Shown here: positions 7,348 to 46,100 of the stretch, piece by piece
Position numbering within the stretch: the stretch's first letter is position 1
Layout: each line of letters begins with the position of its first letter
From: Amphiscolops sp. MND2022
Taxonomy: Eukaryota
DNA length: 64,000 nucleotides
Direction of reading: 5' to 3'
Assembly: GCA_964187785.1 (NCBI GenBank)
Contig: OZ076409.1
Coordinates: 39,000,001-39,064,000 of the forward strand
Made by a program: the position numbers and the translations under genes
The notes under the pieces: model-generated
What the model saw: the letters and a program-made list of their open reading frames with translations, nothing else
What the model was told of the DNA's origin: nothing
Database searches by the model: none

Positions 7348-7447
7348 CTTATTAACTGTTTATGTTGTTCATTGTTTTGCTATATAATTTGTTGTATTTA
7401 CATATTAGTGTAGTTATTCATATGTTGGGAGACCCATGAAAAAGGTC

Positions 7448-7453
7448 AATAAA
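7448..7453 (+). terminator. Candidate polyadenylation signal of the antisense gene
   Basis: AATAAA 100 nt downstream of the TGA at 7345-7347. Confidence 0.55.
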
Positions 7454-7677
7454 TGGAAAGCACAGTAATGACCATAGTGCGAATGATACAAATCCAGATG
7501 CTACGGCGGAAAGATCGGTAGTAGTGTGTTTACAACATTAGTTATTTTGGTGCCCAACAGCTGTTTTTCTTTTGAGTTGTTAGTGATAGTTACAGAGGAT
7601 ATTAAGTACGTGTAAATCAACAAGTTCGTCCAACAGTTCACTTGAAGCATTGTCTTCGGTATTTTTGTATCATAGAT

Positions 7678-9943: not shown

Positions 9944-9970
9944 TCAGATTTAAAGTGAAACTTTTCTTGG

Positions 9971-16566: not shown

Positions 16567-17050
16567 AGAGGTGAGAGAAAAGGAATTATGAGTGAAGACT
16601 GGATTCTGGATGATTTTCGATGTATTTTACTATTTTGTGCCGTTATTCGAACTCAAATTCACTATTTCTGAACTTGAGATGTAAATGCGATGAGTTTTAC
16701 AGTAAGACAAGGATACTAGTAAAGAATGAGAATAGTTAACGAGGATTAAGTAGAGTTCATCCAAATTTCATCGAATAGATATCAATCAAGAAATTACTCA
16801 GAGTTGTGAAGGTAGCGTTATTTACGATGAATAAGAGATATGTTTTCTAGTTCAAATCTGTCGTAATTCGTCCAACTGGACAGTAGCTAATCGCAATTTC
16901 GGTCTGTGTAAACTCTAATGGCGGTCCAAAATACAGCAGTTCACGTGTCTTTTCGGGCTGGTAAGACGCTAAATCTCTTACCAGCCGACTCTTATTGGCT
17001 ATTGCCAGTTGGTGCTAATTGGTAAGTCACGTGACCGGTGTTGTGAACTG

Positions 17051-18491
17051 CCGCAAGTTGGCCAAACCACATGGTACATCTACATATGCTAATTATGACT
17101 AATCATCACTTTACAATGTCGCAATTGCCTGCACACAGTGTCATGGTTTCTATAGCAACTCAAATCATTCAATAATGTACTAATTTCAAGTCAAAACAGA
17201 GTAAGCTGCATCACAGGATGAGAAAACGATGTTTTTCCAACTAATTCTAGCATTAAAATCAATACTTCAAAAGCAAAGATGGAAACGCGATGAATTCGTC
17301 AGAATATTTGCTGATTTTCAAGTCTAGTTTAGCTCTGGATGAAAATGCGATGAATGGTGGTCTTTTAGCTCGAAAATCAACACGATATGAACTGACGATG
17401 ATAAAAGGATGAACTCGTCTTCAAAATGAATGATTTCCAGCACAATTTAAATCAACGATGGTAAAAGGATGAACTCTCCTCGAAAATAACTAATTTCCAG
17501 CACTAGTGAAATTGACGATGAATTCAGGATGAATTCAGCCAATAAAACAGGTGAAACAGCTAATTCTGCAGTGAAGACAAATATACGATGACTTTAGGAT
17601 GAATACATTCAATAAAACAGCAAAATCTAATGAATGAAATTCCAACGATGGGTTTAGGATGAACTCAACTGAAAATTCGGCAAGTTCTAACGTAAGTCGA
17701 ACTAGCGATGAATTTACGATGAACTAGTGATGAGTTAATCTAATAAAACAGATATCCAGCACTTCACTCTTTTTTAGGATGAATTAAGGATGTACTTTCT
17801 CATTTCTTGTAGTTTCTGTTCAGGACGATGAAATATAGATGTGTTATGCTCTTTTTAAGAAATGAGAAGCACATTGAAGGTTAATAATCACAAAACGACG
17901 ATGAGTATAGGATGGCTTTCATGCATTTTAAAGTCCCGTGAGATCCGCTGATGGATCACTAAATAAAATCAAATATATGTCCCAAATTTTGTTCACCCGC
18001 AATCTTGGCGATGTGATTGCGATGAACCTTGATAATATAGCACCGTAATTTCACTAATAGATCAAGTTGTAGGATCACTAAGTCCGCTGATGGATTAGTG
18101 ATGAACTTTCCTGAAATTCGTCACGACTACAAGTCCTGAGGCGAGGGAGCTAGTAGAAGTTACAGATTCCATTATTTCTACATCTCTCGGTCCAGTCTGA
18201 CCGGAAGACTTCTCTCCCTTATCGTGACAAACCAATATTGAATAAGATAGCACATTAAAAGCTATTGGCAAGATCATTTGTGCGGACACCGGAATTAGAG
18301 CGCTCAGTATTAAGTAAATATATATAGCTCAAACTCAGGGGGGATAGGGATTAAAGTACAAGTAACGTAGGGTTGCTCACAACCATGGCTCTTATTATAT
18401 GACATCATATTGCCCATATCTAAGTACATAAGACATAATATTTACATTACAAATATTTAGTAGATTATATTTCCATCATGCTGGCATGACA
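17051..18491 (-). repeat. 5' LTR of element A (inner boundary uncertain, at or before 17051, or 17139)
   Basis: Matches 1-1441 and ends ...CATGACA followed by the unrelated flank GGGAC. No canonical tRNA PBS was recognised next to it. Confidence 0.92.
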
Positions 18492-18919: not shown

Positions 18920-21100
18920 AGTTGACCCCAATGACCCCCGAATGACCCAATAAAGACTCCAAAATAGGAAAATTTCCAATTTTTTTAAGTTTAAAGGCAG
19001 TTTTTGTCATTTTTTTTTTATAGATATCGTATATTAGAATGTTGAAAACGTTTAACAAGGCACAAACTCGTTGCCCAATAGTCTTTTATGAAGAGATAAT
19101 TGCTGTTTTCCAGAAGGAAAAGATCTCAAATTGACACTGGAAATGACAAAAATCCAAACATTTCCCAATTTTCAAAGTTTTTTTTTGCAGTTTTTGTCAA
19201 ATTTTAGATAGCCTTCGTGGATTAGAATGTAAAACACGCTCACATGGCACTACTTCGTTGTCCAGTAGGCCTTTCCGGAGAGATAATTGCTGTTTTCCAA
19301 ACGAAAAAGTCTCAAATTGACACCGAAAAAGACAAAACTCACAAAAGTTTTCAGAGTTTTTGTTTTTTTATTAAAGTTTTGCGGATTGGAATATTTGGAT
19401 GTTTTCACGATTTTGCGGATTGGAATATTTTAAGGGGTCAACAAGGAGAGAGTGGGTTGTCGAGTAGGCTTTCTCGAAGAGTTTATTGCAGTTTTCTACG
19501 TGAAATTGTCTCAAATTGAACGCGAAAACGACAAAAAACCCAAAACTTTCCATTATTCCAAGCTTTTATGCATTTTTTGTTAAAGCTTTGACGGTTTTCG
19601 TGGATTGGAAACTTTAAAAGTGTCAACAAGGAGAGAGTCGGTTGTCGGGTAGTCTTTATTGAAGAAATAATTGCAATGTTCTGAATGAAATGTCTGAAAT
19701 TGGCATCGGAAATGACAAAAAGCCCAACTTTTTCCAATTTTCAAGGGTTTCATGCCTTTTTTCCGAATTTTCGACCGACTTTGTGGATTGGAACGTTGAA
19801 AAGGGTCAACAAGGAGAGAATGTGTTGTCTAGTATGTTTTTCCGAAAAGTTTAGGGCAGTTTGCTATATGAAAAACTCTCAAATTGACACCGAAAACAAC
19901 AAAAAACCCAAAAGTTCCAATTTTCAATTTTTTTATTGCATTTTTTGTAATGGTCTCGACGGGTTTTTGGATAGGAATGACCTAAAGGGTCAACAAGGAA
20001 AAAATTGGTTGTCCAGTAGGCTTTCCCGAAGAGTTTGTTGCAGTTTTCTCCGTGAGAATTTCCCAAAATGACACCGAAAACGACAAAAAACCCTAACTTT
20101 TTCCATTTTTCAAAGATTTTATTCAATTTTTTTTAAAGTTTCTTCGGTTTTCGTGACTAGAAATTTTCAAAGGACCAACAAAGAGAGCGTGGGTTGTCGA
20201 AGAGTCTTTAATGAAGAGATAATTGCAATGTTCTGAATGAAATGTCTGAAATTGGCACCGGAAATGACAAAAAACCCAAAATTTTCCAACTTCCAAGGAT
20301 TTTATGCATTTTTTCCAAATATACGACAGACTTCGTCAATTGAAACGTTGAAAAGGGTCAACAAGCAAAAAATGTGTTGTCGAGTATGATTTACTGAGGA
20401 GCTTACTGCAGTTTTTAAGTGAAAATTTTTCAACTTTACACCGATAATAAAAAACCTCAAAGTTTTCCACTTTTCTATGTTTTAATGCATTTTTGTTAAC
20501 ATTTCGACAGACATCGTGGAATTGGAACATTTTGAAGGGTCAACAAGGAGAAGATGGGTTGTCGAGTTGTCTTTAATGAAGAGATATTTGCAATGTTCTG
20601 ATAGAAAATGTCTCAAACTGACACCGTAAGTAACAAAAGTCACAAAATTTTTCAATTTTACCGCTTTTATGAATTTTTCCTAAACTTTCGACAAACTTCG
20701 TCAATTGAAACGTTAAAACGAATAAACAAGGAAAAAATTTGTTGTCCAATTCGCTTAGAAAAAGTAAAAATGCAGTTTTTGAAATGAAAACTGTCCGGAA
20801 ATGACATCGAAATACAAAAATTCGAATGTTTTACGATTTTCATTTGTTCTATTATTGTCAAAATATCGATAGACTTCGCGGACTAAAATGTTAAAACGCT
20901 AAAACATGGGGAAATATGTTGTTTTGAGGAGCATCGTTACGAGATAAGTTCAATTTGTTAAAGATAATTGCATCAAATTGACCATGAAAAGTCGGAAAAA
21001 TTGAAGTTTTTATCGTTTTTGATGCAATTTCTGTACAATTTCCGATAGATTTCGTTCTAAACTCCAATACAATATCTCAAAAACATTAAAACGAGGTATG
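18920..21100. repeat. Diverged tandem array, unit about 184 bp, about 11 copies
   Basis: The AAATTGACACCGAAAA-like anchor recurs near 19128, 19314, 19513, 19697, 19881, 20066, 20249, 20432, 20615, 20798, 20975. GGTCAACAAGGA and GAAGAGATAATTGC blocks also recur. Confidence 0.85.
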
Positions 21101-25144: not shown

Positions 25145-28100
25145 CTGCTTCAAGGATGATGGCGTTTCGTCTCTCTCTGAACATGATGGCCTGAGAGGTC
25201 ACGTGGTAGCTTCGTGATGTCACGTCTTTCTCTCCCACATCTCTTCTCGCTCGTTTTTTCTCCGAACAGGTAGTCGCTGACAAAATTCAGGGTCAATTGA
25301 AAGATTAACAAATCAAGATCCTTTATTATCTAATTTTGATCTGAAAATTAATCGGCAATCAAAATAATTATAACCTTCAATGAAGACATGACTACGAATT
25401 TTGTTCTCTAGTACTCAAAACGTTGGGATGACTGTTAAAAATAGGACAACGGCCTTGTTTACAACTCGGTCTGAACAAAAACGTTTTAAATCATGGCTCC
25501 CCACTATTTCCAAGTATTTTAGTTTGGTCACCTTGGTATCAGATTAAAATCTCCTACGTGAAAATCTCCTAGGTTAAAATCTCCTAAGTTAGAGAAGTGA
25601 TTAGCTCGTGTTCTCGATTTTCAGGAAAATGAGATTTTTGCAATTTTGCCAGCGTACCTGTTGAGTTAAGAAATCATGCAACAGAACGTATGGTTCATTT
25701 TGATAGAAAATTTATTTTCCTTGAATATTTGCTACTAAAATGGAAAGTCCTTACGAGGGTCGCAAGTGGCGCTGTTTTCCTGAAGACAAGCCTTGACCTC
25801 GCAATGGATATAAATGAGGTCAGCAGCCGCGTCTGACCAGGCGAACGCCAGCACAGACATAGGGTCAAGCTTGCCGTTCAGAGAGGCCCTAACATCTGCG
25901 TCTCTCTGGAAAGTCCCTTCATCTGTATTTGGGCATCTAAAGTTTAATTGCAACATGACTTTGATCGAGAAATTTCAACATTGTCACCATAGAAACTTAC
26001 CGAGGTATTTTTAGTTGTCGACTTTTTTGGAATTTGTTCATTCCATCAGAGAACTCCTGCTGTTTTTGATATTTTCAGTTAAAAAAATCGACTATTATGC
26101 AGTCCCGGGTTTCCCGACCAGGCCGATCACAATCTGATCATATTATGGCACCATACAAATTTCCTTACTATGATCTTGCCATGATCGGCCTGGAATCATA
26201 TGTAACGATAAGCGCTGGCGCTTGAACCGCAACGTAGAGTGGAGGAACTAGAACAGCGAATATAATCTGGGACCTAGATCTCCGCGGCTCTAGCTCATTT
26301 TCCCTCCGAAGGAGCCAGTCCCAGGGTGGGGGAACCGTCTTGTAGGATACTCTCTGGCCTGGTCCTAGTCTGTAACTGCTGAAAGTAACAGGCATCTTGC
26401 AAGTCTCAAGACCACTGCTCAACTAGCCTTTAAAAATTGGGCTGAAAACGATGAAGGTTGAACCGTGATATTGGAGAATCTGATAAAATCGCCAAATGGG
26501 ATAAACAGATGTTAAACAACAGCTCTCGAGCATATTAATTTACCACATCGAAAAATACAACAAGAAATTAAGAGTCCAGAGTCATTTGATGGAAATTGAC
26601 TTCAGCTTCCCAGCGCTAGCTCTAGTTGCCACACAGGATACCGCAGGGATACTCAGGCGAACATCTGGAACACTGGTTTCCTTTACTGTAGTAATGGATA
26701 TCTCCTAGAGATTGACACAATACCGTGTTCTGTATGCGTTGGGGACGTCTTTTTTGTCGTCTCCGGTGCTTGTTCGTCGCGAGCGGCGATTTCTGCTTTT
26801 CTGGGGTGCTTTTTCTAGCAGGTACTTCGTCTTGAGCATGTTTGAGTGCCACGTCAGATTTGAACGAATTTTTGACAAAATTTCTAAACATGTCGGTTGA
26901 TATTGCTGTACCAGAGCTTGCCGTTACATCACTCCCCAGGCTCCTGGCTTGTCGTCCCTGGCATGCGGCGTCTGGCTCATCTGGGAACTGCATCACAGAG
27001 ACTGCTGGGAACCATCATCCACACATCGGGGAACAAGGACGAGTCCTTGTTTTTCGGCAACAAAAAATTTTTTTTTGAGAAAGAACTTACTGCCTAGCTA
27101 TTTGTACAAAACACTAACGAGGTTTTAGCACCAGCTCGAGAGCTACAGTTTTCAGCCGGTTAAAACTTGTTTGGGCAGTTAACTTACGTAAAAACTTTTT
27201 TGCGACCAAAGTCGGCTAAAATTTCTTTTCTTTACCATTTGAGACTTATAGTCTTCATATCATTCCAGGCGATTACAAACTTTTTTTAGAGCTTGCGGGC
27301 TCACACGGTGAACAACCAGATTGATGAAGAACACCAGACTAGAAAGAAACGCAATCAAGAGGGATATGACTTCTTTTGATTGTGACAACTCAAAAACACC
27401 GCGAACGGTGCGCAACAAAAATAATAGTTTTTCTGAATAATGGTTTTTCTTTTCTTTCTGCTTGGTAATTCAAGCCACTGGGGCAGGCGTACTCTGCTGG
27501 CCGTACACCCAGTGCAACACTAATGGTACACTAATTTTATAACCATAACTATGAACAAAAATTGCACTTTGTACTGTAGCACCGTTCTGGATGAGAAGTT
27601 TTAAGGCACTGTTTGTTGGCAGTTTGTGAGGATATGGGGAGCACGAACGCTCCCATTAGCGGCTGGGTTTATTGAACCGAACTGCGTCGAGCCCGCTCTT
27701 TAGTGGCATCATCTAGGTTCTGTTCTGGATTATCAGTCGACACTGACGCTCGACGTCGGGGAGAGACTTCTGTGGCAACGGTTTCAGAGTCCGACGGACT
27801 TTCGGGAAGCGACAACTCGGCAATGGGCTGCACTAGTGCTGCATTGGGAGTCAACTCGGCGGCGTGCTCTCCGGAATGCTGCTGCGAGGTCTGAGGGCTC
27901 GTTCGCGATGAAGACGAGCCAACTGGTTCTGGCTTCAAGTTGTGGGTTGGAAGGTTAATGGTGATCGGTTGAGAGATGGGCCGATCCAGAGACATCGCCA
28001 TCGTTGGTGCGAGCATGGTAGGCGCGAACGCCTGTTGTCTCGCTATCTCTGCTCTACCTTCTACTGCTAGTGCGACTCGGCGTGAGATCCACCCAGGTTG

Positions 28101-31100
28101 GCTCCAGAGCCCGCAAGCTCTTCCATTTAGGAAAGCTAGCAATCTCCAACTCCAGACAGTATTCTTCCCATCTTGCTAGTTCTGTTGAGCCCAACACGGA
28201 ATTGATCTCATCATGCTGGACGATGGACATATCTCCGGACATGGTCATCTTTCCCGTAGGTTTCCATGCCGACTTCCCGGGGAATGGGGTAACGCGGGAT
28301 TGGAGATTCCTTTGCCTGATCTGAGCAGCGCCTTCAATCCATCCTGGGATCTGGGCCGACTCTAAGTGATGGATTTGACGGTTGAAAACCTCTGGGGCGC
28401 GTCCAACGGGTTTCGCCCTAGGCCATCCTAACGGCTCCTTCCAGTAGCGATTCGGGAAGGCGATGCATTTAAAGCTGTATAAAGGGTCCACAGGTGGACC
28501 AGCACTAGTGCTGGCGCGAATCGCCTTTCTTATGAACTCTTGACTCCAGGGGAACCTAAAGGGGACTCCTTCCAAACTGAGAGGTGCGGAGTACCAGTTC
28601 ACAGGCCCATGCTCTCGGGGCAGAGGACATGCTTTCCTGGTGCGCGCGCGCAACAAACCCATCAGGTTCTCCTCCAACTCTCTTTCGGATTTTATGTTCG
28701 TGTACCCATGCGGCACTTCACCACTCAGCACGGCATGTATTACCCTTGGATATGCCAGTGAGGGATGGCCTCGCAGATAGGTGCTAAAGGAGACCATGTG
28801 CACTTGGACTGCTGTTGCTAATGGTTTCGTAGGGTATCGGCACACGCCCACTGCGCCAAAGATAGGGGCCAAGACGGGAGCCATGGCTGCCACGAAATCT
28901 TCTACCTCAGCCAGGGTGAGATCAGCAATCTGCTGCGGCAAGGGGAATCCTGCCGTTTTCCGTGGGATCTGCTGGTCTGAGTTATGTAGTGGTTGGGATT
29001 GGTCCACGCCCACGAATAGACCGGAGGCGAACACCAGGATGGAATATAGCCAGTGCTGGATCGACGCACGCACGCGCTCCAGTTGGGCGGACTAGTCTTG
29101 TTGGTCTTTGGAGGTCATCAAGAGTCCCCAGCGGGTCAGGCTGCGTAGTTGTCCCTGTGCCAGGACCAAATAGCTGTTGAACACGGTGAGGTCGCAGGCA
29201 ATCACGATGTCGACCAACAAGGCCAGTGGTCCGGCTACGAACTTTGTTGGGCCAATCGCTAGCGCGAGCGCTAGTATTTCTCCGACAGTTGCCTCCCCAA
29301 TTGTTTCTAGCAGCTTGTCCGTTTGCGTAGGGGTCAGTGAAAACTCGGAAGTTAGCACTTCAAGGTTCCATCCCAGACCAAGGCTGGTACAGAAGGCTTC
29401 CAATGGACAATTGAGCTCTCGAGCTACTTCTGCCAGAGTTCTGGTGGCAAACCTAGTCTGATACCAATAGGCGTAAGTGGTGGCTGCGGCGTCAACCTCT
29501 GCCTTCAGATTTGTCGCTTCCATTGCCACGATGCACCGCAGTCCTACAGGCAGCTTCACGGGCTCGATTCCTGAGGCGAAGTGGATCTGAGGGATTGTTC
29601 TCTCAACGGTGCGCGCTGCAGGCCATGCACCAATTTGTTTTGTCAGTTCGGCTAACTCTGCGCGCACTGGGATTTCTTTGTCTTTTCGCACTAGCCAGTT
29701 GTACCGACGGACAGCCTCTCGTTCGGTTACATTAGACTCTCGGGCGATGCGATTGCCGTCAAGGTCAAAGGCCAATCTGCCCATCCGCATTCCATGATCA
29801 TAGAGGATAGCGTCATCAATGGTTAGTTGAGCATTTCCCGAGCGTTCTATAGCCACGAGTGCTCTAGATACGGCGGCAAAGAAGGCTGGATACGATAAGG
29901 TATCTAGGCGCAGGTCCTCTCGGTCCACACGCAAGTTTGGTGCACAGATGGCGAATTCGACTCTGCGCGCCTTGCATACCTCCAGCAGAATGTAGACAAA
30001 CTGCTGCAGACTTCGTGGCCAATACATGAATCCTGGTGGGGATACAAAGAGCGCGAGCGCTCCCAGACGACCCCGAAGGATCCCTGCGGCACGTTCCATT
30101 GCACCGACCACCTCATTTACCAGGGCTGCAACGTCTCCAAGTCGTCGGACATCGGACATTATGGCGTCCAGGTCACGCAGCAACCCTTCGCAAGCCATGT
30201 GATCCAGAAAATTGGCAAAGATCACGCGCTGTGGGGGTGGTTCCTTCTGTGATCCTCTTAAGTTGGGATCGTATATGGCTCCAACCATCTCAGCGACCTC
30301 AGCGAAGCGAGACAGGGGCATAGTCAGCACCAGCACGTCAGGCATCAAATTGTCAATAGGGAGGTCACTCCGGCAAGTAGAATCAACCGCCATGCAGTAG
30401 CGCGCGCGCTGCAGAGCTGCTTTCAATAGTGGTTTCAGAGATCTCAAATTGCGAGCGTTCGCTTCCCATGTCTCACCTTCTCGCAACACATACCGTGCAG
30501 GGAATTGCTCGGTGATATTATGTTGCAGGGGTGCCATGTAATCGTTAGTTGTCGTAGGCAGCTGCTCTCGAGCACGCTGTTCCCAGGCCTGCTCTGACAT
30601 ATCTGCGTCCCGGGGGCGCAGCGAACGTGTGACCTGCGCCGGTATCGTGGTTTGGTTAATCTCCTTTTGCTCCGTTTCAGTTGGAGGGGTCCTTTTCTTT
30701 ATAGCGCATTGACTGGGATAGAGATGCTCAGCCGCCATCCAAATGCGTTTGCTATCATTGGTGACTACTGAACCGGATACGTCATCAGATGGAGGGAGGA
30801 AGGCTGGAGGACGGGCTTCCTCCACCGTCTCAGGTATCTCTAGGGACATATCTATTGGATTCGTGCCCGAGGGCACAGAGCTCACTTCCGAGCCTGCATC
30901 CGGATCTCCATACTGCTCGGTCGCGTCCGCTAGAGACATTTGAGGTGCGCTTCTGCCTAGGTGACCCACCCGGTACGGAGGCCTAGGGATGACTACACTC
31001 TTCAGCTGGGGTCGAGGTACATCAGCGCGCTTGTCGGGAGGGGGACGACTAGTCGGGCTCTCGGTTACTGAGCTAGCTGGGGTAACTGAGACAGTTTCTT

Positions 31101-34100
31101 CAGTCAGTCGCTTTCTCCCCGTTTCTTCTCGTGCGCCAGTAGCAGCGCTTGCGCTGTTGCTTGGTCCAGCGGCAATTTCCACATCCATAGATGCCGTCTC
31201 GACTAAGGGAGCAGGAGGGTCACAGCCCGCGGGCTGGACAGCAGCTTGCAGATAAGTGGTTAGTCCAGGGATTCTCTGCTCTACGGCACGATCAAAATCG
31301 GAGGAGTTGGGATAGTTCGCCACTGCTTGCAAGGCCACAATTACGGCCTGTTCGCTGGTACTCCTTCCCGTCAGCTCTAGGTTGGGTATGGGTGGCAACC
31401 GGGACCTCGAGGGCTCCCGATCCGAGACTGGTGCATTAGTAGTGGTTTGCAGTACCATGTGTGGTGCTCGATATGAGGTTCCAAAGGCGGGTGAACCGGA
31501 ATAGGTTGGCGTCATTGGTACTGGTTTTGGTGCTGGTGGGGGCAATGCGACCATCTGAGGAGGTGGCATTGTTGCTATGCTGGCAGGCACCATACACAGT
31601 GAGGCTTCTTGCTCGAATCGCGTGCCCTGGCTGGGCCCGAGCATTGTGGTAGAAGGTTCATCCAAGAACTGGTGCGTCAAATCATGGCCATCCCACGCAT
31701 TGTTTTGGCAGGTTAGCGTGCGACGATAACCGGCTACTTCCGTCACCAGAGACACAGATACTCCCGGCAGCGTCTGCATTGTGTCTAATTGAGTGAGCAG
31801 GGCGGCCACGCCCGCTACCGCTAACGGTGAGAGGCCGTTCCTCAGTCGTTCCTCTACATATTGGACTTGATTAGTCCTCTGCGCTCGCGCAGGCAATTCC
31901 TGAGACCTATTGGCGTGAGGTCCCGTCGTGGAAATAGGCACCGTGTTGTTGGGGTAATAAGCCATTATATCATAGGTCTAAAAAGAATTACCGTTAGGCA
32001 TACTAGGTGCATTGTGGGGAGAGCTTAAGGCTCATCATCCAGCTGCTATAGTACAAAGATGGTTCCATAGGAGAACTGCAACAAATTTAAATTGTAGTTC
32101 AACTAACTAACTGGAACATAAAGATAAGAGTTATTTAACGCTACGTTACAAGGTAATCATTTCATGGGATGGTTTAAGACTTCCTCCCAGACATAACGAT
32201 TATCGGGGTGGGCAAATCAAATAGGGGGGCAACAAAAAAGAGTTTTGAGCGGGCTACTCCGGCCCTATGTTTAGAATGGACACATACACGCGGTTATGCA
32301 GCACCACGTGAATGCCAGTGCCCTCCAGCAAATTCGTTAGGGTATGGTACAGGTTTACCAATGAAAGGGTGGGTCGCTCTGGATCCAGTATAGGTAGGTG
32401 GACCCTTGTGGATCCTTTCTCTATCAAACGCTGTATCAAGTGCGTCATACAACGTAGGTAGTCGTCGGTGAGCAGCGGCGCACGCTGGTTTGCTCTGATT
32501 ATTAGTAAGTGAATACTCTGATTGGGGTTTGGGTTGATATCGGGAGGAATGGTGAGAATCTCCCCCACCTTAGGACGTAAGGAGAATACATTCTCCTTGC
32601 CGCATTCTCGTAGCACGTACCGTAGGGCGGCTGAGTTAGTCTCTAGGTCAGCGGGACACGCTAACACCATATCACCTTCTACTTGAAGAAAATCAGCCAC
32701 ATCATATGAGAGATGCTCTGTTGGGGCTGGATACAGAATTCCCGGGTAGATAATCTCTCTGCCCGGCCCATTGTCTGCAGGCAAGCATACAAGGGGCGTA
32801 CGCCCCTGGATTGCAGCCAGGTCTTGCCACACCGAGCGTGGTATCGCTCGATTATCACTGCTCGCCCTGACCCATGTATCTAGGGTGCTCAAAGCGGCTT
32901 TTGGGGGAAGCGGAATCTCAAAAGTATGAGTCCACTCGTCCAGCAACCTAATGCGAGGATAATTGGTGAAACAAGTGATGATTAGTTCCAACCACCACGC
33001 GAATTTCACTTTGCCACGATACCAGTCTATGATGTGGAAGCAAAGTATCAAGTCCGCGGTAGTGAGGGTCCTCAGACCTTCCAAGCAGGACAGCAGGTGC
33101 AGTGGTTCCACTATTGCCTCCACTCGTGGAGCAGTGACCAGCAACCACCAGTGCGGCGCTGGGCTGTATACTCCGCCCGGATCCACGTGAATTCCGTATT
33201 TGTCACAAAGAAGATCAGCGGTGATGCATCGGACCATTTGCACAGGCTCCCGCTCGAAGTTGAAGGGTCCAAACGCAATATTGCTGGGTACTGGGGGCAT
33301 CACCGTTGCGAGGGTAAACTCTAACCCTTTTCCGTCGCTAGTCCACTCCTTGAATTGAGGACATGGAGCTTTCGCTACTCCAGGTAGTGATAATTTCTCC
33401 AGAATAGTATCCACGGGATGGTCTCCGTGTCGTTCCAGGGAGGAATAAGTCTTTTCAGCTCTCACCGTAAGGCGATGTACTAGATTTTCTCCCCGCTCCG
33501 GAGGAACTCCCCGGGCTCCAGTGGGAACCCTCCGGTTCTCATTGACGGCTAGCAAGCAAACACAGTCTCGCAGCCCACAGGTCCCACACTTGTAGCGTGG
33601 CTGCCGCCTGCCTCTCAGCTGATATCGGGGGACCTCAGAAGCCTCGGTCGGTATTGCTGTTTCCGACGGCTTTGTTGTTGTTGTTTCTTTCTTCCTCGTT
33701 CTTGCCTTCGCTCTGACCAGCCTTTTTTGCGTTTTGGGTGGTCTCCCCCTCCCCCTTTTGAAAGAAGGAGCGGTCCCTGCTCCGGGCAATGTCGTGGGAA
33801 GAGTAGGGACATTGGATTGAGCGTTGTCATCCTCGGTGGAGGATTTCAGAGGAAGGGAAGGAGCGGCCGGCCAAATGGGATAGTTACTGAGGAAACTCGT
33901 CAGCGATGGATTTGTCAGTAGTGGGGCCGATGTTCCCAATAATGAGGGCTGTTTTTCGGGAGAGGATATTTGTGGTGACGGAGAGCGCGCGCGCTCATGG
34001 TCTGAGAATAGTTGAGGTAGATGATGGGTAGGTGATATTGATTGGTCTGAAGGGGGTTGGGGTTCGGGTTCCGTACGATCAGCATCAACGGGATCAGGAG

Positions 34101-37100
34101 GTACCGGTAACATGATTTTGGACAACTCGTCGTCAGTGCCCGAGGTCGAGTAGTCGAACTGCTGGTAGTGCATGCGGGAACCTCCAGCACGTAGTTTGGT
34201 GCGCAGACGGGTATCCATCCAATGGTGCTTGCGCGAAGGCAAGGATATGTCAGATGCTTCTGAAAGTAGTTGTTCAGTTTTATATGAAGGCTGGGACTTA
34301 TCGTCGTCGACTTCTTCAATAGAACGTTCAGGGTCAGGGTCCATGAGTACCACTATTTCCCCGCTGTCCGCTTGCGCGGTGGCGAGCTCAAGGGGCCCAC
34401 TATGATGAGGTTTCAGGCGCTCAAAATGAACCTTTTGGCTGGTGTCCAATACATAGACGCGTCCTTCTTGAAAGACTTGTACTATTTTGTGCGGGCCACG
34501 CCAGGCGCGCATCAGTTTGGGAGAGCCCTTTTGCGGCACGTAGCGGCAAAAAACCCAGACAAGCTCTCCTGGCTGGTAAGCTCGTGCTCGGATGGCACGA
34601 TCATATTTCAATATTTGGCGTAATTGGGCTTGGTGAGTATTGCGCCGGACCAAGTCGTGAATTTCTTGTTGGCGAGCCAACACATGATCCACGTATGCTT
34701 CATGCGTATCAAAGGACTTGGCCGCAAATTCAGGGTACAAAAAGGTGAGGGGGATTGCTTTCTCAACACCCCTTGTTAACATGTAGGGCGAGAAGCCGTT
34801 AGTGGCGTGCCTGGTGGAATTATAGGCACCGATCACTTCATCTAAGCATTGGTCCCAGTCGCGCATGCGACGTGAGCAAAAGACTCGCAACAAGGTTAAG
34901 AGGGTGCGGTTTTGCCGTTCCACTAAACCTTGAGTTCGTGGATGTCCGGCAGTGGAGGTCACCTTAGTGACGTGAGCTGCCTTTAGGAACTCATTGGAGA
35001 CTTCAGCGGTGAGGTTTGGAGCATTGTCTGATTGCATGCGAGTGGGGGTGCCGTGGCGGGCAAACCACTTCTGCAGCAGCAATCGTGAGGTGGTTACTGC
35101 GTCATAGTCGTGGTGACTACAAGGGACTGCCTCTGCAAATTTAGAGAAATGGTCGATGATGACCAAAATACCGGTGTTGTTATTATCAGAGGGGCAGATT
35201 TTTAAGTGGTCGTACTGGACCAACTCGTTGAAGTAGCCACTCTGGATGTTTTTCAGTTGAAATCGTACGTCACCAGGCTTGTCACGTACTTGTTGGCAGG
35301 TGAGGCACTGGCCGACGTATCGACCGATGCTGCGTCGTATGCCGGGCCAAGTGTGGCGCTCTTGAATTCGAGCTACCACTTTTGAGATACCTTGGTGTCC
35401 CATTGCGTCGTGCGCACGGAACAGAATTTCGTGCTGGTACAGTTGAGGCATTATGATAATGCACGGACGTTCGTGCAATGGGCGTTGGGTGGGGGAGTAT
35501 TGCACGCAAAGGACATCATTTTTGTTTATGAACAAGAGGTCCTTTTTCTGGCGGAAGTAATTACGTGCGAACTGACGCACGTTCTCGGGAAACACATCGT
35601 TATCTATGGATTCACACTGCACCAGCTTTTTCAGCGCTAGCACATGGACATCGCGGTTTTGGGCTAGGACCAAATCCTTGATCCCATGCACGGTATGAGT
35701 GTGTTCATGGAGCTCGGTGTCGATGTCCTTGAGGGCCATGATCGACTCGCGCACGCCACCAGGAGAATTCTGTAGCATGGCGTCACTCGTTCCCGTCACA
35801 GAGTAGATGGTGCTCGAGGGGACATTTACTTCATGTGTTGGCAGCAGGTAATCCTCGCTCGCCTCAGTGGTGACGTCTATCCAGTCTTCAGGATAGTCTG
35901 GGTAGAAGTCCTCGTGCTTCTGCAGTACGGGTGGAGGCTTGGGCGGTAGAGGCGCGGCTAGCGCCTTCGCCTGTCGTTCTCGCTTGTTCGCTCGTTGCAC
36001 ACGGCGAAGCACACGGAGTGCTTGGTCAGGAGCCTTAGGCTCCAAGTTCTGCAGATGCGGTGGTAGGTCAGGATGATTTGGAATGATTCGACCTTGCAGG
36101 TCGAACCAGGGGGCTATGGGGAGGTTGTCGAATTCCTCGGCCGAGAGGAAATTCCAACGCTCTCCAGTAGCTGGCAGCTGCGCAAGCTGCCGTTCTCGGC
36201 ATCGATAATCGTTGGTTCGTTTGCTCAAGCCATCAGCATTGCGGTGTTGAGTTCGCGGCCTGTGTTCCACGCGAAAGTGATACCTGTCCAGCGTCATAAT
36301 CCAACGTCCAATCAATGCTTGGTCCGTGGAGTAGGTTTTCAACCAGGATAGGGCTTGGTTGTCGACTCTCAGGGTGAACTTTAAGGTAGCTGTGGTACTT
36401 CAGGATGAAGTAGTAGGCTGCAAACATCTTCAGCTTGGGTGCCCCATATTTGGCTTGAGTGGTGGTCAGTTTCTTGCTGCCGTATATGATCGGTCGTAGG
36501 CGTCGCTCTCCTGGAGCTCCTTGCCACTGGTGTAGGATACCGGAAATGGCAACGGCGCTGGCATCGGTGTCCAGCACAAACTCTCCTTCGGACTCAGGCT
36601 GCGCGAGCGCAGTCGCCTCGATCAATGCTGTCTTGATTTCGTTGAAGGCTCTTTGTTGGTCAGGGCCCCATGCAAACGTGGCATTCAGTCCCTTAACGGC
36701 GTGGAGGGGCGCAACCAGCTTGGCATGCCATGGGATAATTTCACGATAATAATTAGCGAATCCCAGGAAACTTTGCATTTCGGTTTTGTTGCGGGGGATG
36801 TCCCAATCGCGCAGTTTGGCAACAGCCTTCGGGTCCGGCTTGACACCTTCTGCGGAGACTACGCGTCCCAGATATTTGATTTCTGGTTTCATGGAATCGC
36901 ATTTGGCTACGCGCATCTTGAAGCCAGCCTCGCGGAGGCATTCAGAAACCTCGCGCAGACGCGTCATGTGATCTTCCACAGTCTCTGTTGCTATTACTAT
37001 GTCGTCGATGTATGCCATGACCATGCTGCCTTTGCGATTGACCATTTTTTGTAGCGCTCGCGCTATTGCTCGCTGGAAGGTGGCTGATGCATTGCACAAG

Positions 37101-40100
37101 CCAAATGGCATTCTTCGCCATTCGAAGAGTCCCATTTTACAGGCAAAAGCTGTCTTGTGGCGGTCCGCCTTTCGCAAGGGAATTTGCCAGAAAGCCCAGG
37201 CAAGATCTATGCTAGTGTAGATCCTTGCATTGCCCAGTCGCGCCAGGCTTTCATCGATGCGGGGCAGGGGGTAGGCATCCTTAATGGTTACCTCATTCAG
37301 CGGTCGGAAGTCACAGCAAAAACGTAACTCCCCGCTTTTCTTTTTTACCATTACGATACCACTTGCCCAAGGGGACAGTGAAGGTTGTATCATCCCTAAG
37401 GCCAATAAGCTCCGGACCTCTTGGTTGGCTCGTTCAGCCTTTTCGGGGGACATTCTGCGAGCACCTTCACGGTGCGGTACAGCCCCAGGCTCTACCTCTA
37501 TGGTGTGTTTAGCAATGGTACAGCGGGCAATGTCCGCCTTACGTTTCATGAATAGGTCATCAAACTCGTTAAGAATGTTGTCCAAGGACTCGCAGGCGCT
37601 AGCGCCCCAGAGTTTTTTAACTTCTTGCAGTTGAGAATCGGGCCCAGGGATCGGGGCCAATATGTCTGGATCGGTGCGCTTGCGAATCTCGCGCTCCGAA
37701 AGCCCCGCTTCACTTGGATCCGTCGAAGACAAAAACTCAAATTCAGATGAAGAAGTTAACTCAGAAGCAGTGGATAGATTCATTTCACTGTACCTTTTAT
37801 GAACAAAATTTGCTCGACTGTTGTCGGCTTCAGTTTTGTGGTCAGTTTCCGCAGTAGCATCCAGCTTTTGGGGCACAGCCTGGTATACTAAAGACACAGG
37901 CACTACCGTGCCCAGGTGGGCACCACATCGTACACGCTGCTGGTTGCTGGTGAGGTTTACCAGACTCACATACAGTGTTCCTGTCTCACTGACAGTGGCC
38001 ACGCTGTCCTCTAAAAAGATGGTATTTTGCAGTGAGGGATCAGACAACGAGGCGTTAAGCGCCACGGTCTGGAAGATTAATGGTTCAAGCGCGTTGGTGA
38101 CAAGTTTAGCCTTTGCCACTGTACGCTCGAAAGGCTGTAGGACCAGGTCACTGTCCAGAGCAATGGGGGTAGTTAGCGAAGCATCACCTACCTGGGTGTG
38201 TGCATGATGCCAGACGTGCTTCACTGGTGCTCGCACCACTATCTTCATGGAGGTTAAATCTACCAGGACTTGGTAGGAACGGAGGAAGTTTCGACCCAAC
38301 AGAAAGTCCTCCACGCCCATTGCGTCATCTACCACGACTAAATTGGTTTTGAGTTCATACCCTCCCAGCTGGAAGCGTATCTGCTCAGCCAACCCGAAAG
38401 TCTTTATTGTCTTTCCATTGGCAGCGTACAAGTCAATTTGATAGGGTTTCAGGACCGCACCGGTCCGTGCAGCTACCCGGTTGAAGGCGGAGAAGGTTAG
38501 TATAGACACCCCGGAACCAGTATCCACCAGGCCTCGCAGTGGGATAGGTGCCGCATGGGGCACCACAAAGGAGACAACAAGCGACGCACGCTCATCTATC
38601 CGCGCTTCCCCGGTGGGTTCTTGGTGGTTGATATTACAGCATTTCAGCTCTTGAGGTCCCAAGCATAAGCCGGGTGGGAATACATCTACCACCACACAGG
38701 CCTCGAATTTCGCGTCCACGCCGTCCATCGTTGCACAGACTGGTACTGGCGAGTATGTAGTCAGGGTCTCTGACTCTCCAGGGACGTACCACTGTTTTGG
38801 GCGGGGCAACTCCATCCGGTTATAGAGGACAGATAGCTCAACCCAGAGTTTCGCCAAGGTTAGCGTTGGTCTACGCACTTGCTCGGCTGCCAGCATCAGA
38901 TGAATCGAGAACAACGTCCTCCCTTGTGGATCGAACGTGGTGGGCTCCAAGCACGTCTGAATCTGCTTTGTTTCGCATGTGACTATCAGTGGGGGATGAA
39001 ACGCTGGGGGCTCCGCTGGGTGTAGCATTAACACGCGATCATCTTCCAGGGGTACCGTGTGGGCGGCCACACCGGCGGATTCCACCTCGGCCGATCGATT
39101 GTAGGCGGATTCATCATTAGGCCTTGGAGCTTGAGAATGCTCACCACAGGGGACATCCACATGGTCATAGACTCCACAGTGCGCACACTGATGAATGCAT
39201 GGATAATTCTCCAACACGCCATCAGTCACATCTTCAGCAGTAACTTTCACGCCTTCTGGCTCGGGAGCCGCCACTGGCTTGCGAGCCTGGTCGCGGGTGG
39301 GACAGTCCCGGGCAAAGTGCCCAGCTTGACCGCAATTAAAGCACGCGCCAATGGGTAGGCGTGCCGCAGGCTGCGCTGCTGCCTGATTTGGCGGGGCATT
39401 GCTTGCAGGTGGGGGAGGCATTACTCCTTGTGGTAACACCATCTTGTTGGGAGGTAGCGGCGCGAAGGGATGAGGTCTAGACCTCATCGCTAGTCTGGGG
39501 TCATAGGGTTGAGGGAATTGGTTGGGTTTGGGGCGATTGCGCTGCAATTGGCGGGTGGTGAAGCGAAGGGATTCCACCGTAGGTGGGTCAGTCAGGAAGG
39601 CCTCCGAGGCATACACTATAGCTAGTTCCCGCCTCAGCGCTGGGTCTCGCACACCTTCCATAAAGCGCTGGAGGATTTCATAGCGCTTGGTAGTGATTGT
39701 CTCTTGTGGGAATCCTTGACTCCTAAGACCCTCTAGAGCGTCTAAATACTGCATCCAGTCTTCTTTCTCAAGTTGGATGCGGCTCTGGAAAGCTTGTCGT
39801 ACTTGCATCCGATTTCCTCCAGCGCCAAAGCGGCTGGATAGCAATTCGAACACCTTCTCGGGGGTGTCACGTTCAGATTCCGCTTTGTTAATGATGTAGT
39901 TGCGGGCCTCACCTTCAAGGTGACCGATGATGCTCCAAGCCTGGTCCTCGGCTGAGACTTTGGTTTGCGTTCTCTTCAGGTATCTTTGCATAATAAGGAT
40001 CCACCCATCAATGGATCCGTCTTTCGAACCGCGATATACATTGGGTCTCGCCTGAGCGAAGTCTCTACCGGCTAGTAAGGGCGCTAACTCTTTTGACATC

Positions 40101-43100
40101 GCCTTTGATATGGCGGCCGTGAATCTCAGCTGCTCAGGGGATATGGTTTCTCCTTCTTCGACCTTAGCCTCCCCCGCGCGCGTCCTGTCATGACTACCAA
40201 GAGTGGCTTGTATGGATAGGTCAGCGATTTCGTCCTTTTTACGGGTGCTGCTAGCACAGGGAGTGCCCGAGGGCAGTCCATGATCGGCTGACACGTCTGC
40301 GGTCAAGTATAAGGAATCTGGTTCTGATATCAAAATAGGGGCAGTTGCAAACGTCGCTCCTTCGGTTTGAGAGCCTAGGGTTGCTTTGGTGTTGGATAAG
40401 TCGACTTCAACCGAAGAATCAAGATAGATAGTCGACATCGGGTCCACGCCTTGATCTCGAGTGGTGCTCTGGATTGCAGAAGGCATCGATGACGCTGCTG
40501 AGTCGTGATGTCCCCTCATCTGCACTCGTGCAGGCTTGCGCTCTGCCTCAGGCGTGGCTATCACCAAATTTCCGGCTGCTCCTTTATCTTTCCGGGGCGC
40601 AGGCACTGCCGGCCTGGAAGTGTTAGGCTTCAGCGCGCTCGGCAGTTCCGATTTCACTACCTGGCTCGGGCACGTCGGCTCCGAGATGCGGACTGGACCT
40701 CCATTCCGCACGCCTCCACTTGCACTGGGCTGCCGCGGGAGTGACCTCTCGCGCCTCATGACATCAATGGCATTGAGTACCGTGTGCATCTGATTGCTTA
40801 AGTTGTTGATCTGCGTTTCCACGCGCAACTCGCGAGCCATCAACATGTCATTCATCTCTCCCATCCGGTGACCCAATGTGTCCACTCGAGCATTTTGCAC
40901 GTTCTGCGCGGTACGCAATTGATCGCTGACCTGCAGGCCCTCGCGCATCGTCGTCTGCATCACTTTAATGTTCTCCACGATGGCAAGATGTTGCTCATTG
41001 CATTCAGCACGAGTGCTGGCCAGACCTGCTAGGGCCCGTTGGGTTTCGGCTTGGGCATCCAATAACGCTGCCTTGTATACTGAAGACCGTTGCGATGAGG
41101 CCAATGAGCCTGTCATACTCCTGACACGGGATGCTTCTTGACGTGGTTCGCCTATCTGTAATATGGGTGGTCGCACCCTCTTGTGCTTCCCATAGGCACA
41201 GACCCGGGTAGGTCCTCGAGTGGTCCCGAGTCCTCGCTGTCTCGCGTAACTCATGCCTCCCACATAAGTGAGGTCCTGCTCCATGTCAGTCTGTGAGCCA
41301 AGTTGTGTCTCTCCAGCCGGAGGTGCGCGCGAGCACCCTTCCTCAGCCGCCAATTCATCGGTTACATTCGAATTGGGCCAGCCCTCCTCCACTTCATTGG
41401 CTCTATCGCGGCAGGTTTCGTCGACCCACTGCTCGGTTCGACGCGAATTTTCAGAAACACTGGAGTTCTCTGAGGGAGGAACCATAGCGGCCAATTTCTC
41501 TTTTCGCTGTTGTTCGATAGTGACTTCGTCAGACATGTCGTCTTAAAAACGCGAACTATCTATCGTGACCCATGATTGTGAACCGGTATGGGGCACCGCC
41601 ATCGGTTCGGTGGCCAACGCGTTTATCAATAACGATCGAGTTACCGCTCATGATTACTCGGAAGACTCAAATTGGGTCGCCGAACGCACCAGGGTCTTCA
41701 ATTCGGGGCTGATCCCTTGGTCGTCCCGGTGAGAACTTAAGAAATTTGATGGTACTCAACGTCCTAGATTTTTCGAAACACGTTCTAAGGCTCGTAGGCT
41801 ATCCAAATTTGCACAGCGCTTTCCCACAAGCACGCTGGGCCCGAAAATCAACCTGGTTTCGGGCAAGAAAGTTCCAGTCACTCACAGGAAGAATTTCAAA
41901 GGATTTTGGTGTTTTTCAAAATTCGCACGACAACACTCAAAAGGCTCGTGTGTGCGCTGGAAGCGCTGTATCAAGCCCAAATTTGACCAGCAGATCTCAG
42001 GTACACGTAGGTTTACGAAACTGAACACAGTTTTGAGCTGCGCCCCTTATACACAGTTTCACCTGGGTACAGACGTGCGGTACCACTATGTACCAAGATA
42101 CACTGTTTTTCACGTCTTTTTCAAGATTGCGGTCCACTGGAAAGAGCTAGCAAGCTCACCTTTTCTGCAGTAACGTAGGAACTAGCACAAATTACGATGG
42201 TGGGCTGCAATATAGCCCCACCCGTCAGCTAGGGTGCTCGGGTTACTTGGAAAAATTAAGAAAAAACTGCCTTTTTGCACGCTTTTTTGGGGGCCACGTT
42301 TTTGCTATTTTCTCAACAAGTATCACACAGATCGGCACCAAACTTAGTAGCCTATGCCAGTGGGAACCTACAATGCCACTGAAATGGTCGAATTGAAGCG
42401 CGAGCGCTTATTTGAGGTTTCGACCCACTATGTGCGTTGTGCACGAAAAAACACTGTTTTTGACGACTTTTTTCACAAATTGACCAAGAGGATCACCTCA
42501 GAAAGTGATACTGCGGGCAAAATGGGATCAACGTGTTGCCCCACTATCCGTAGCACTGGGATAAACCCTCAATTGGTCGTGCCCGTTAGGTATAAGGCAC
42601 TGACAGTCCTGTAGTTTTGGATTTTCTCGGCCTTTTTGTGCTTTTCTGAAGTCGAAACAACAGAGAGCTTTTCTCGACTTTGGTGAGCAATACGCTCGCC
42701 AAATTTTCGGCACTAACGTTAATTTTTGTGGTGGTTACGAAAATGCAACCACTTTTGGCTAGGGTTCAGGAATCGATGACCCGACCCTAGCTCAGGGACA
42801 GTCCGGTTTTGTGGAAAATTGACCAAATTCAGTGCGTTTTTCCACTTTTCTCAGCACTGAAAAGGAATTTTTGCACGCGGTTTTCACCACAATGCGTTGT
42901 TTTTATTATAAAAACAGAAGATGAGAGCGCGCGGGCTCCCAGGTCTCGAAAACACTGAGTGCCCCAGAGGTTTTAATGATGCACTCTGGCACTCCTGAAA
43001 CTGGCCAAAAATCAAGGCTTTTCGACTTTTCTCAACGCTGAAAAGGAATTTTTGCAAGCGGTTTTCACCACAATGCGTCGTTTTTGCTGCTACAGTCGAA

Positions 43101-46100
43101 AATGAGAGCGCTCGAGCCCGCTCTCTTCGAAGAAGCTTCGCTCTGGGTGTTTTTGGTTAATGCACTTTCTCTACTCGAAAATGCCAAAAATCACAAGTTT
43201 TTCGCACTGTATTAGCCCCAGGCTGCCTGAGTCCGCTACAAAAGTTGCAATTAGTTTCCTGAGGGTCAACTACATCTGGGGTAGTGCCGTACACTGTCGT
43301 TTTGCACTTCCATACTCGTGTACGTTCACGTTTTGGGTGCCTTTTTGGCCAAATTCCCACTTTTTCCACATTTTTTGGCATCAAATTGGCACTTTTATCA
43401 CAATCAAAGGCTTCAACTTCGCCTTTCGTGCCTCGTGCCGGCTTTCTCGAGCCTTGCAGCTGCTTTTTCAAAACTTTCTACCAAAACTTCCTGGCTTCTG
43501 TGAGCACTAGTGCTCGAAACCAAGAAAAACACTAAAAAAACGCAAAAATGAGGTTTTTTTCTCCAAGTGCTATCCTTTTCGCAGAAAAGCACTTCGTAGG
43601 GTGTCGTTACATTTATAGTAGAACGTCACTGACCTGCACCAACGATTCTCCATCGAAAGAGGTGTATTTTCAAAATTTTCGCCAACCATACTCCATCCGA
43701 GCGACTCATCTGGTCACAGGGGGTGCATCTTCACCACGTTATTTCTCCACATCTAGACCAGACAGAAACACGCGGGTGGGACCATTAGCACCGTCTGTCG
43801 TTGCACTTGCTGTCCACCAAAAACCATGCCTCTAGGACGTCTCCACGAGAAATGGGAATAGGAAGTAGGCAACACAAGATTCGTCCCTTCCTTCGCCTCG
43901 CTGGAGCATGGTCAACCATCCATCCGGTACCCTCTTGCATGGCATAAAATGGCTGAAAATAGCTCAAAAAACCTGTTAGACACCCGTAGCCACGTGCTAT
44001 GGTCCCCTACACCTGCAAAAAGGTACCCGCTGATGGGTACACAACACATAACACATAAAGAGCGATTTTCTTCTAAAATGCCCAAAAATACCATTTTCGC
44101 ACCTGAAAACACGTTTTCTTCGGCATTTTCTCTGGTTCAACGCCTCTCCCAGTTCCAGTAAGACGTAATACGACTAAAAAGAGGTGAAACTCTGCTTCTC
44201 TCTCCTGTCCAGAGTCGAAAACGGGCTTGGCGCTGATCACCAGGGGGCCAGATCTTTTAAAAACCGCTAGGGAAAGCTTCCCAAGACGATCCCTCTGTGG
44301 TCGCCAAAAAATGAGATTCTATGTAACGATAAGCGCTGGCGCTTGAACTGCAACGTAGAGTGGAGGAACTAGAACAGCGAATATAATCTGGGACCTAGAT
44401 CTCCGCGGCTCTAGCTCATTTTCCCTCCGAAGGAGCCAGTCCCAGGGTGGGGGAACCGTCTTGTAGGATACTCTCTGGCCTGGTCCTAGTCTGTAACTTC
44501 TAAAAGTAACAGGCATCTTGCAAGTCTCAAGACCACTGCTCAACTAGCCTTTAAAAATTGGACTGAAAACGATGAAGGTTGAACCGTGATATTGGAGAAT
44601 CTGATAAAATCGCCAAATGGGATAAACAGATGCTAAACAACAGCTCTCGAGCATATTAATTTACCACATCGAAAAATACAACAAGAAATTAAGAGTCCAG
44701 AGTCATTTGATGGAAATTGACTTCAGCTTCCCAGCGCTAGCGCTAGTTGCCACACAGGATACCGCAGGGATACTCAGGCGAACATCTGGAACACTGGTTT
44801 CCTTTACTGTAGTAATGGATATCTCCTAGAGATTGACACAATACCGTGTTCTGTATGCGTTGGGGACGTCTTTTTTGTCGTCTCCGGTGGTTGTTCGTCG
44901 CGAGCGGCGATTTCTGCTTTTCTGGGGTGCTTTTTCTGGCAGGTACTTCGTCTTGAGCATGTTTGAGTGCCACGTCAGATTTGAACGAATTTTTGACAAA
45001 ATTTCTAAACATGTTGATATTGCTGTACCAGAGCTTGCCGTTACAATATATGGTTCAGAGTATGATCAGCCTGAAATCATGAACTTTTGTTCCAAACGCG
45101 GATTGACGTGATATGCAACCCAAACAAAAAAATCAGATATTGAGAACAGCCAGCTTTATAGAGGTAACAGAGCCTCATTCGATCTTTAGTATCTGCGAAC
45201 GATACATTGCAGGTCAGAAGAAAGCTATAAAGTTAAAGACAAGCTATAGTAACTCAATTTGTTCTCAGCCACTCCTTAGTTAATAACTAACACTTTTATT
45301 ATAGCAGTACCCACTTTGCAGTGTGAGTTTCGATTATTTCGAAAAAAATTACCAGTATTTCAGCAAAAGCTGCCAAAAATTGATGATTGCTACCTCGTTT
45401 TCAATTTGTTGATTGTATTGGACCTTTGGTTGAGGAATATCTAGTAATTTCATAAAGTGTATGCGGTAATTGACTATATTATCCTAATTTTCTTTTTATG
45501 GCTCCAGGCTGACCATACTCTGGGCCATAAAGATTTATGGTTCCAGGCTGATTATACACTGAACCATATATGGCCCAGAATATGGTCAAGCTGGGACCAT
45601 AAACTTTGCTTCTTTATGGAACATGGCGTATCATAGACTGGACCATATATGTCCAGAGTATGGTCAGCCTGGAACCATAAACCTTTATGGTCCAGAGTAT
45701 GATCAGCATGGATTCATAATGTGAGTATGATGGCAGAGTATGATTAACCTGTTTTTGTATGGGAGGGAAACCCGGGGTCGACTATTATGATGACTATATG
45801 TAGTCGTTTTTTAGTCGGCGCATTTTCCTTTAAGGAAAAAAGCCCGACTATTACAGTGGCTAGTTTTTTTTTTTTTTCGTCAGACCACAGAGCTCATCGC
45901 GTATGTACCACTTTTTACAGAAACTGATAAGTTCACTCAGGCCAAGTTCCACCAATGCAAACTTACTGCAAAGGGTCCCCCCTTTCGTTTTTTACCTTTT
46001 TTACGTAACCTACAAAACCGGAAGACTCCAAAGGGTCCCCCCTTTCAATTTTTTTTCGGCACTGTGCGAATTTTTTTTTCGAAAATTTTCAATTTTTCAA

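Follow-up and report, generated by a model that had tools for sequence, protein, structure and literature searches.

What does a pair of macrodomains do at the end of the Pol polyprotein of a retrotransposon, and can it still engage ADP-ribose? The question is raised by a 64,000-nt stretch of the genome of Amphiscolops sp. MND2022 (GCA_964187785.1, contig OZ076409.1, 39,000,001-39,064,000 of the forward strand), which we refer to as the window and whose numbering is used for all coordinates below. An earlier note, made from the sequence alone, had described tandem TARG1-like macrodomains fused to an integrase C terminus and had proposed that they are ADP-ribose readers or decoys.

The window harbors an 18,845-bp LTR retrotransposon on the minus strand (26201-45045), and all of its features lie on this strand except the strandless 3-bp target-site duplication (left copy, 26198-26200; right copy, 45046-45048). 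The 5' LTR (44322-45045, 724 bp) and the 3' LTR (26201-26928, 728 bp) both have TG..CA ends and align with 716 matches and 8 mismatches. A 15-nt spacer (44307-44321) precedes a primer-binding-site-like motif that starts with TGG (whole feature, 44289-44321), and 181-bp repeats lie in the 5' untranslated region (42838-43117). Gag with a CX2CX4HX4C knuckle, protease, RT, and RNase H are encoded at 36233-41542, and the integrase zinc finger and DDE core, as identified by Pfam, at 34810-35448. These are followed 3' of the core by an integrase C-terminal region with a GPY/F-type motif (34360-34764), which matches P0334, a protein that carries Pfam PF22938, with E 3e-15. The domain order by Pfam is zinc knuckle, protease, RT, RNase H, integrase zinc finger, and integrase core; the protease-RT-RNase H-integrase order, the TG..CA LTRs, and the GPY/F-type motif are features of Ty3/Gypsy elements (Metaviridae). 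While the window copy has a frame change within RNase H, sister elements encode Gag-Pol in a single frame of 3116-3310 aa, e.g., one frame of 3129 aa in L002/L107. An extra ORF 3' of pol (28054-31977) has no match in Pfam or the Atlas; it is split by a stop into two in-frame pieces in the window copy, forms a single 1478-aa frame in the P0016 subfamily, and is absent from the P0018 subfamily, which nevertheless has kept both the macrodomain pair and the 3-bp duplication. As to the surroundings, the retrotransposon was inserted into a palindromic 39-nt-type repeat array (45046-45720). The window also contains a 184-bp tandem satellite (19050-20780) and another large element of the Gypsy type (1-17600, minus strand), which is broken by stops, has gag-pol at 9971-16626 and further ORFs at 3332-7347, and likely has its LTRs in a repeat that occurs at positions 1 and 17051 and measures at least 562 bp.

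A single minus-strand frame (32254-36399) encodes the integrase zinc finger and core as well as the macrodomain pair, and the peptides quoted in the earlier note map to this frame. The proposed fusion to the integrase C terminus holds in the sense that all these domains are part of the same polyprotein; however, ~260 low-complexity residues and a Cys motif intervene between the integrase and the 355-aa C-terminal end (P0001). The linker evolves fast, with 34-47% identity across distant subfamilies, and contains an AT-hook-like basic GRP motif (33727-33759; Pfam E 0.46, below cut-off). Both this motif and a C-x2-C-x4-C-x-C motif (33556-33588), which may bind zinc, are kept in all five full-length sister polyproteins. 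Next come an N-terminal extension (33289-33486), which consists of strands and a helix, is modelled confidently together with domain 1, and lies outside the listed fold matches of that domain; the proximal TARG1-type macrodomain (domain 1; 32935-33288); an inter-domain segment (32725-32934) with a predicted strand and two helices that belong to the domain 1 model; and the distal, full-length TARG1-type macrodomain (domain 2; 32290-32724).

Both domains are predicted to have the TARG1/ALC1-like macrodomain fold. The AlphaFold model of domain 2 (P0001 residues 200-344) has TARG1 as its best match (Foldseek E 7.8e-10) and superposes on it with Z 17.9 and an rmsd of 2.2 over 140 aligned residues, followed by DarG (Z 15.7), Bt_1257 (14.4), and Poa1p (13.9). 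Because the linker was of low confidence in the initial two-domain model (pTM 0.44), domain 1 (P0001 residues 12-129) was modelled alone with 55 upstream residues (pLDDT 88.5, pTM 0.83). All eight Foldseek matches of this model at E≤0.001 were TARG1, with which it aligns over 115 residues (Z 11.9, rmsd 2.9), tied with Bt_1257 and DarG. The 118 residues of the domain 1 model span 142 residues of TARG1, and the deficit of ~24 residues corresponds to deletion of the first glycine-rich diphosphate loop and part of the following helices. In profile searches, P0001 as a single sequence had no macrodomain match in Pfam or the PDB, none of 43 family members matched Pfam Macro, and an initial family profile reached TARG1 with an E value of only 0.13; by contrast, the domain 2 family profile matched TARG1 with E 6.6e-5, and all five of its PDB matches under E 0.001 were TARG1. 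Matches to domain 2 in the Atlas scored 0.90-0.92, and 14 of 30 fell in clusters with 14% Macro members, which we treat as a lead only. Matches in a viral fold library were macro-domain proteins and polyproteins without a name, none closer than TARG1. Thus, the superposition on OARD1/TARG1 and the profile searches that the earlier note had proposed as checks support its view that the end of Pol follows the OARD1/TARG1 pattern and that two macrodomains lie in tandem.

The pocket residues of these macrodomains differ from those of TARG1. We mapped domain 2 onto TARG1 from the profile alignment and domain 1 by way of a domain 1-domain 2 profile alignment, with residue roles taken from passages of PMC9411070 and PMC7050489. 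In the window copy, domain 2 has Arg for Lys84, Asp for Gly121, Glu for Gly123, and Pro for Asp125. In the family alignments, which contain fragments and decayed copies, the position of Lys84 in domain 2 is Arg in 39 and Lys in 1 of the 42 rows with a residue, that of Gly121 is Asp in 39/41, and that of Gly123 is Glu in 33/41. The Asp125 position is Pro, Ser, or Gly and never Asp (0/40), Gly41 is retained in 1/35 and Gly43 in 0/35, with Ala in 31/35 at the latter position, and the adenine-site Asp is retained in 24/28. In domain 1, the positions of Lys84, Gly123, and Asp125 are Ala/Ser (49/53), Tyr/Phe (52/56), and Gly (50/56), respectively, and there are conserved Arg/Lys and aromatic residues. 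Accordingly, the Lys84/Asp125 dyad of TARG1 is absent and both glycine-rich diphosphate loops (Gly41/43 and Gly121/123) are replaced, a D-x-x-R-G/P motif common to both domains standing in place of the second loop, in line with the earlier suggestion that the catalytic Lys and the GCGLD loop are altered. Several residues at former active-site positions are still conserved (Asp225, Ser230, Arg276, Asp313, and Arg316 of P0001). As described in part of PMC5928194, TARG1 with a G123E substitution neither binds ADP-ribose nor has catalytic activity, while the protein is more stable and still binds RNA; with Glu at the Gly123 position, domain 2 naturally carries what would be this laboratory binding-dead change. 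The alignment, rather than model coordinates, suggests that the pocket is closed, and the pair has likely lost ADP-ribose binding and hydrolysis.

The likely loss of the pocket did not go along with loss of the domains. In searches of its own genome, at least 114 scored matches were obtained for each of three subfamilies (100, 52, and 41% identity) from ~4,400 candidates apiece, with overlapping candidate sets so that these are lower bounds and not copy numbers; the retrotransposon is very abundant in this genome. A profile search returned 342 representatives at E≤0.001; among the best 150 of these, which were listed, P0275, P0162, and P0172 have a best identity of only 35-36% in the Amphiscolops genome and, therefore, probably come from other organisms. 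Metagenome and viral contigs contained no related loci. Relatives at ~30% identity keep the domains, and domain 1 is present in 80 of 81 relatives in which domain 2 is preceded by 130 residues or more, while proteins found with an intact macrodomain as query have one copy in 35/35 cases. The dN/dS of the two domains is 0.04-0.09 in the four pairs, out of 10, that allowed a calculation for both, compared to 0.10-0.15 for the linker and ~0.01 for RT; the inter-domain segment has 0.07-0.18 in the four least saturated pairs, and all these values are rough, as dS is 0.6-1.9 in usable pairs and saturated for at least one domain in 6/10 pairs. Altogether, the macrodomain pair is old, stable, and under selection, and the proximal copy, described earlier as eroded, has instead diverged under purifying selection.

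The pair is not the only macrodomain among the retroelements of this genome. Single TARG1-type domains were found in at least 150 scored rows of 1,556 candidates and occupy four polyprotein positions, namely the integrase end, the interval from RNase H to integrase, the interval from protease to RT, and, in an RT-less element, the region that follows the protease, so that TARG1-type domains occur in at least five retroelement architectures of one genome if the apparently dead pair is included. In an RT tree of 16 rows, which contains only sequences gathered in the present analysis and carries a long-branch warning for L180, the six tandem elements cluster on a separate branch (100/100), at a large distance from the lineage with a single C-terminal macrodomain; RT identity between single-macrodomain elements and the tandem clade is 18-35%. 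The single-macrodomain elements are diverse. L110, L168, L177, L179, and L182 have an RT only ~21% identical to that of the window element, and some of their LTR ends are not TG..CA. L186-L189 and L170/L171 have the macrodomain between RNase H and integrase, TA..AA LTR ends, and 4-bp duplications, and a divergent element has it between protease and RT (L180:8408-8782). L172 and L190/L191 represent an RT-less LTR element, present in many copies, with ~2-kb LTRs and a 5-bp duplication, in which a single ~830-aa frame comprises Gag, protease, and a TARG1-type domain that looks intact. A second, unrelated lineage has degenerated independently; its TARG1-type domains, which are single and lie at the end of the integrase (L166:7943-8368, minus strand; L184:5458-5892, plus strand), lack the Lys and the glycine-rich loops. 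The host has PARP-domain matches in 32 of 41 candidates scored, e.g., at C4:66932847, C13:32550287, and C8:6537011; several lie in single open frames of ~1,900-2,100 aa, one of which has two PARP-like stretches.

With trimmed alignments, the domain 1 profile matches that of domain 2 with 92% probability (E 6e-7). Against a set of 16 single macrodomains (14 intact and 2 degenerate), domain 2 matches with 97% probability (E 6e-11), and domain 1 with only 3% (E 0.014). From this profile similarity, we infer that the pocket was probably lost before the duplication. An ancestor of the clade would have captured a TARG1-type eraser, as did several unrelated retroelement lineages in the genome; the second glycine-rich loop would then have turned into the D-x-x-R-G motif before the domain was duplicated.

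The tandem clade is unusual also in how it appears to integrate. A 3-bp target duplication is present in 25 of 27 readable elements across three subfamilies (L077-L153 and the window), all with TG..CA LTR ends. In the window's own subfamily, 24 elements were tried, the window included, and 19 were readable; 18 have an exact 3-bp duplication, one of which extends to 4 bp in a T run, and one has a mismatch. In the P0016 and P0018 subfamilies, the duplication was found in 4/4 and 3/4 readable elements, respectively, of 5 tried in each. Among control elements with an LTR pair from the same genome, 10/11 were readable, and seven have 5-bp and three 4-bp duplications, lengths that respect the LTR termini, with boundaries judged by eye. 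A misplaced LTR boundary that hides a 4-bp duplication was considered and rejected, since only 1 of the 25 exact cases reaches 4 bp and the next flanking base varies between copies. LTR elements other than Troyka have 4-6 bp duplications according to a passage of PMC12440569, and this length, which is typical of Ty3/Gypsy elements although not defining, is not that of the tandem clade. Moreover, the primer-binding-site-like motif follows the 5' LTR at a distance of 15-16 nt in the clade (window, L134, and L144), as opposed to 0-1 nt in the control lineages with a macrodomain at the C terminus or between RNase H and integrase; the long spacer implies that the integrase has an extended overhang to remove. 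Because the macrodomain tail and the short stagger are both confined to one clade, they do not constitute an independent correlation. As a tentative proposal, which is possible but probably not correct in full, the clade would be an undescribed giant Gypsy-like lineage that makes a 3-bp stagger despite TG..CA ends, trims an overhang of 15-16 nt, and uses a pair of dead erasers to dock its integrase.

What, then, could the pair do? Our preferred reading, to which we give slightly less than an even chance, is that it is a pseudo-enzyme module for protein docking of the integration complex at the Pol/integrase tail. In this view, the pair would act through its surface, and in concert with the AT-hook-like basic linker and the Cys motif, to anchor the integration complex on chromatin or on a protein of the host or the element, with no strict choice of site. 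The link to the integration step is drawn from a single source, the position at the integrase end next to the basic and Cys motifs. The net charge of domain 2 is negative in 9/9 cases (-4 to -9) and that of domain 1 is close to zero, while it is positive for 12 of 16 single macrodomains, although this is a crude measure given differing segment ends and leaves room for a basic patch. Protein docking is favored over RNA or PAR binding because domain 2 is acidic and the pocket is probably blocked. The proposal of the earlier note that the pair is an ADP-ribose reader or decoy appears doubtful on account of the pocket residues, and we consider it unlikely that domain 2 binds ADP-ribose or PAR via a remodelled pocket in which Arg side chains replace backbone amides. 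Such a pocket would be compatible with the full-length fold (rmsd 2.2), the retained adenine-site Asp, and two conserved Arg at the pocket, and the residues conserved at former active-site positions could mean a remodelled ligand site; the host, moreover, has the 32 PARP-domain matches, and many retroelements there carry intact erasers. Nevertheless, Asp and Glu now occupy a diphosphate loop in which G123E alone costs TARG1 its binding (PMC5928194, in part), domain 1 lacks one loop entirely, and domain 2 is net acidic. Still more improbable is that domain 2 remains an ADP-ribosylhydrolase with a different chemistry; SCO6735 is active without Lys84 or Asp125 (a passage in PMC9411070), and DarG without one of the TARG1 catalytic residues (a passage in PMC7050489), but in domain 2 the substrate-binding loops themselves have been replaced.

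Binding of nucleic acid, i.e., of genomic RNA, cDNA ends, or structured DNA, is unlikely given that domain 2 is acidic and domain 1 near neutral, and chains of the SARS-unique domain (SUD), the precedent for this activity, rank far below TARG1 as structural matches (Z 7.4-7.6). Yet the two SUD macrodomains bind G-quadruplexes and not ADP-ribose, as stated in part of PMC2674928, the RNA binding of TARG1-G123E is on record (PMC5928194, in part), and domain 1 has its conserved Arg/Lys and aromatic residues. The protease may also cut the module off the integrase, in which case the pair could be a separate accessory protein for particle assembly or anti-silencing that is unrelated to integration. 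The fast-evolving ~260-aa low-complexity linker ahead of the module would suit such a release, and the four polyprotein positions of single macrodomains suggest that position may not matter; however, no cleavage site was identified, and the GRP and Cys motifs of the linker are kept in 5/5 sisters, so that we rate this somewhat below nucleic-acid binding. The probability that both domains are functionless, decaying remnants is close to nil. The catalytic motifs are gone, and in other parts of the window copy the frame changes and a stop is found; still, we reject neutral decay on account of the low dN/dS, the pairing in 80/81 relatives, and the persistence of the domains both between subfamilies with 41-52% identity and in relatives with ~30%.

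Our literature search, for which Repbase and subscription journals were outside the scope, returned no retrotransposon with a macrodomain that is in tandem or lacks its pocket, no 3-bp LTR lineage other than Troyka, and no TG..CA lineage with 3-bp duplications. While macrodomains in retroelements are already known, the tandem pocket-blocked pair and the TG..CA lineage with 3-bp duplications are apparently new in that we found no report of either. If the tentative proposal of such a giant lineage holds, 3-bp integration would have arisen a second time, independently, and the pair would mark where an arms race over ADP-ribosylation has ended, with a captured eraser turned into an adaptor that has no pocket. 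Duplications of 3 bp next to canonical ends run counter to the 4-6 bp rule and point to an unusual integrase geometry. The architectures found in this one genome form a natural series in which two questions can be addressed, namely whether ADP-ribosylation serves hosts against retrotransposons and what role is left to a macrodomain after its pocket is lost. For annotation, LTR finders set to 4-6 bp likely miss such elements, and the macrodomain pair is invisible to Pfam.

The integrase chromodomain of chromoviruses has a targeting role. This domain, which is named in a passage of PMC12440569, is likewise an accessory domain at the C terminus of Pol, albeit with a different fold. The 35 upstream flanks of the tandem clade that were compared, which include at least two element-internal ones, one duplicated pair, and four that overlap one short repeat, share no target sequence and have an average GC content of 0.36-0.38. 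Troyka elements resemble the clade in their 3-bp duplications, their PR-RT-RH-IN order, and their single Gag-Pol frame. However, the parts of PMC12440569 that describe them give CG..CG ends, a CX2CX8-10HX4C knuckle, no GPY/F motif, LTRs of 100-400 bp, and an interior of up to 7.7 kb, whereas the tandem clade has TG..CA ends, a CX2CX4HX4C knuckle, a GPY/F-type motif, 725-bp LTRs, a 17-kb interior, and a long integrase tail; we, therefore, reject membership in Troyka on the basis of ends, knuckle, and GPY/F. SUD-N and SUD-M of the SARS-unique domain are also tandem polyprotein macrodomains that do not bind ADP-ribose (PMC2674928, in part), but the likeness is an analogy only, since theirs is not the closest fold and their G-quadruplex binding involves surface lysines according to the same part of that source; a lysine-dependent binding mode of this kind fits poorly with the acidic domain 2. 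By structure and by profile, the best match of the pair is human TARG1/OARD1 (C6orf130; PDB 2LGR, 4J5R, and 4J5S), which together with DarG, Poa1p, and SCO6735 belongs to the ALC1-like macrodomains. Unlike TARG1, to which they have 13-16% identity, the two domains are in tandem within a retrotransposon polyprotein and have lost the dyad and both glycine-rich loops. Macro domain ORFs are also carried by fish endogenous retroviruses (PMC4977317, in a passage citing Basta 2009). Within the same genome, the retroelements with a single TARG1-type domain (L110, L168, L170, L172, and L180) likewise have it in or beside pol, in some cases at the integrase C terminus, but they have one copy, in most cases retain both the Lys and the GxG loops, lie on other RT branches, and make 4-5 bp duplications.
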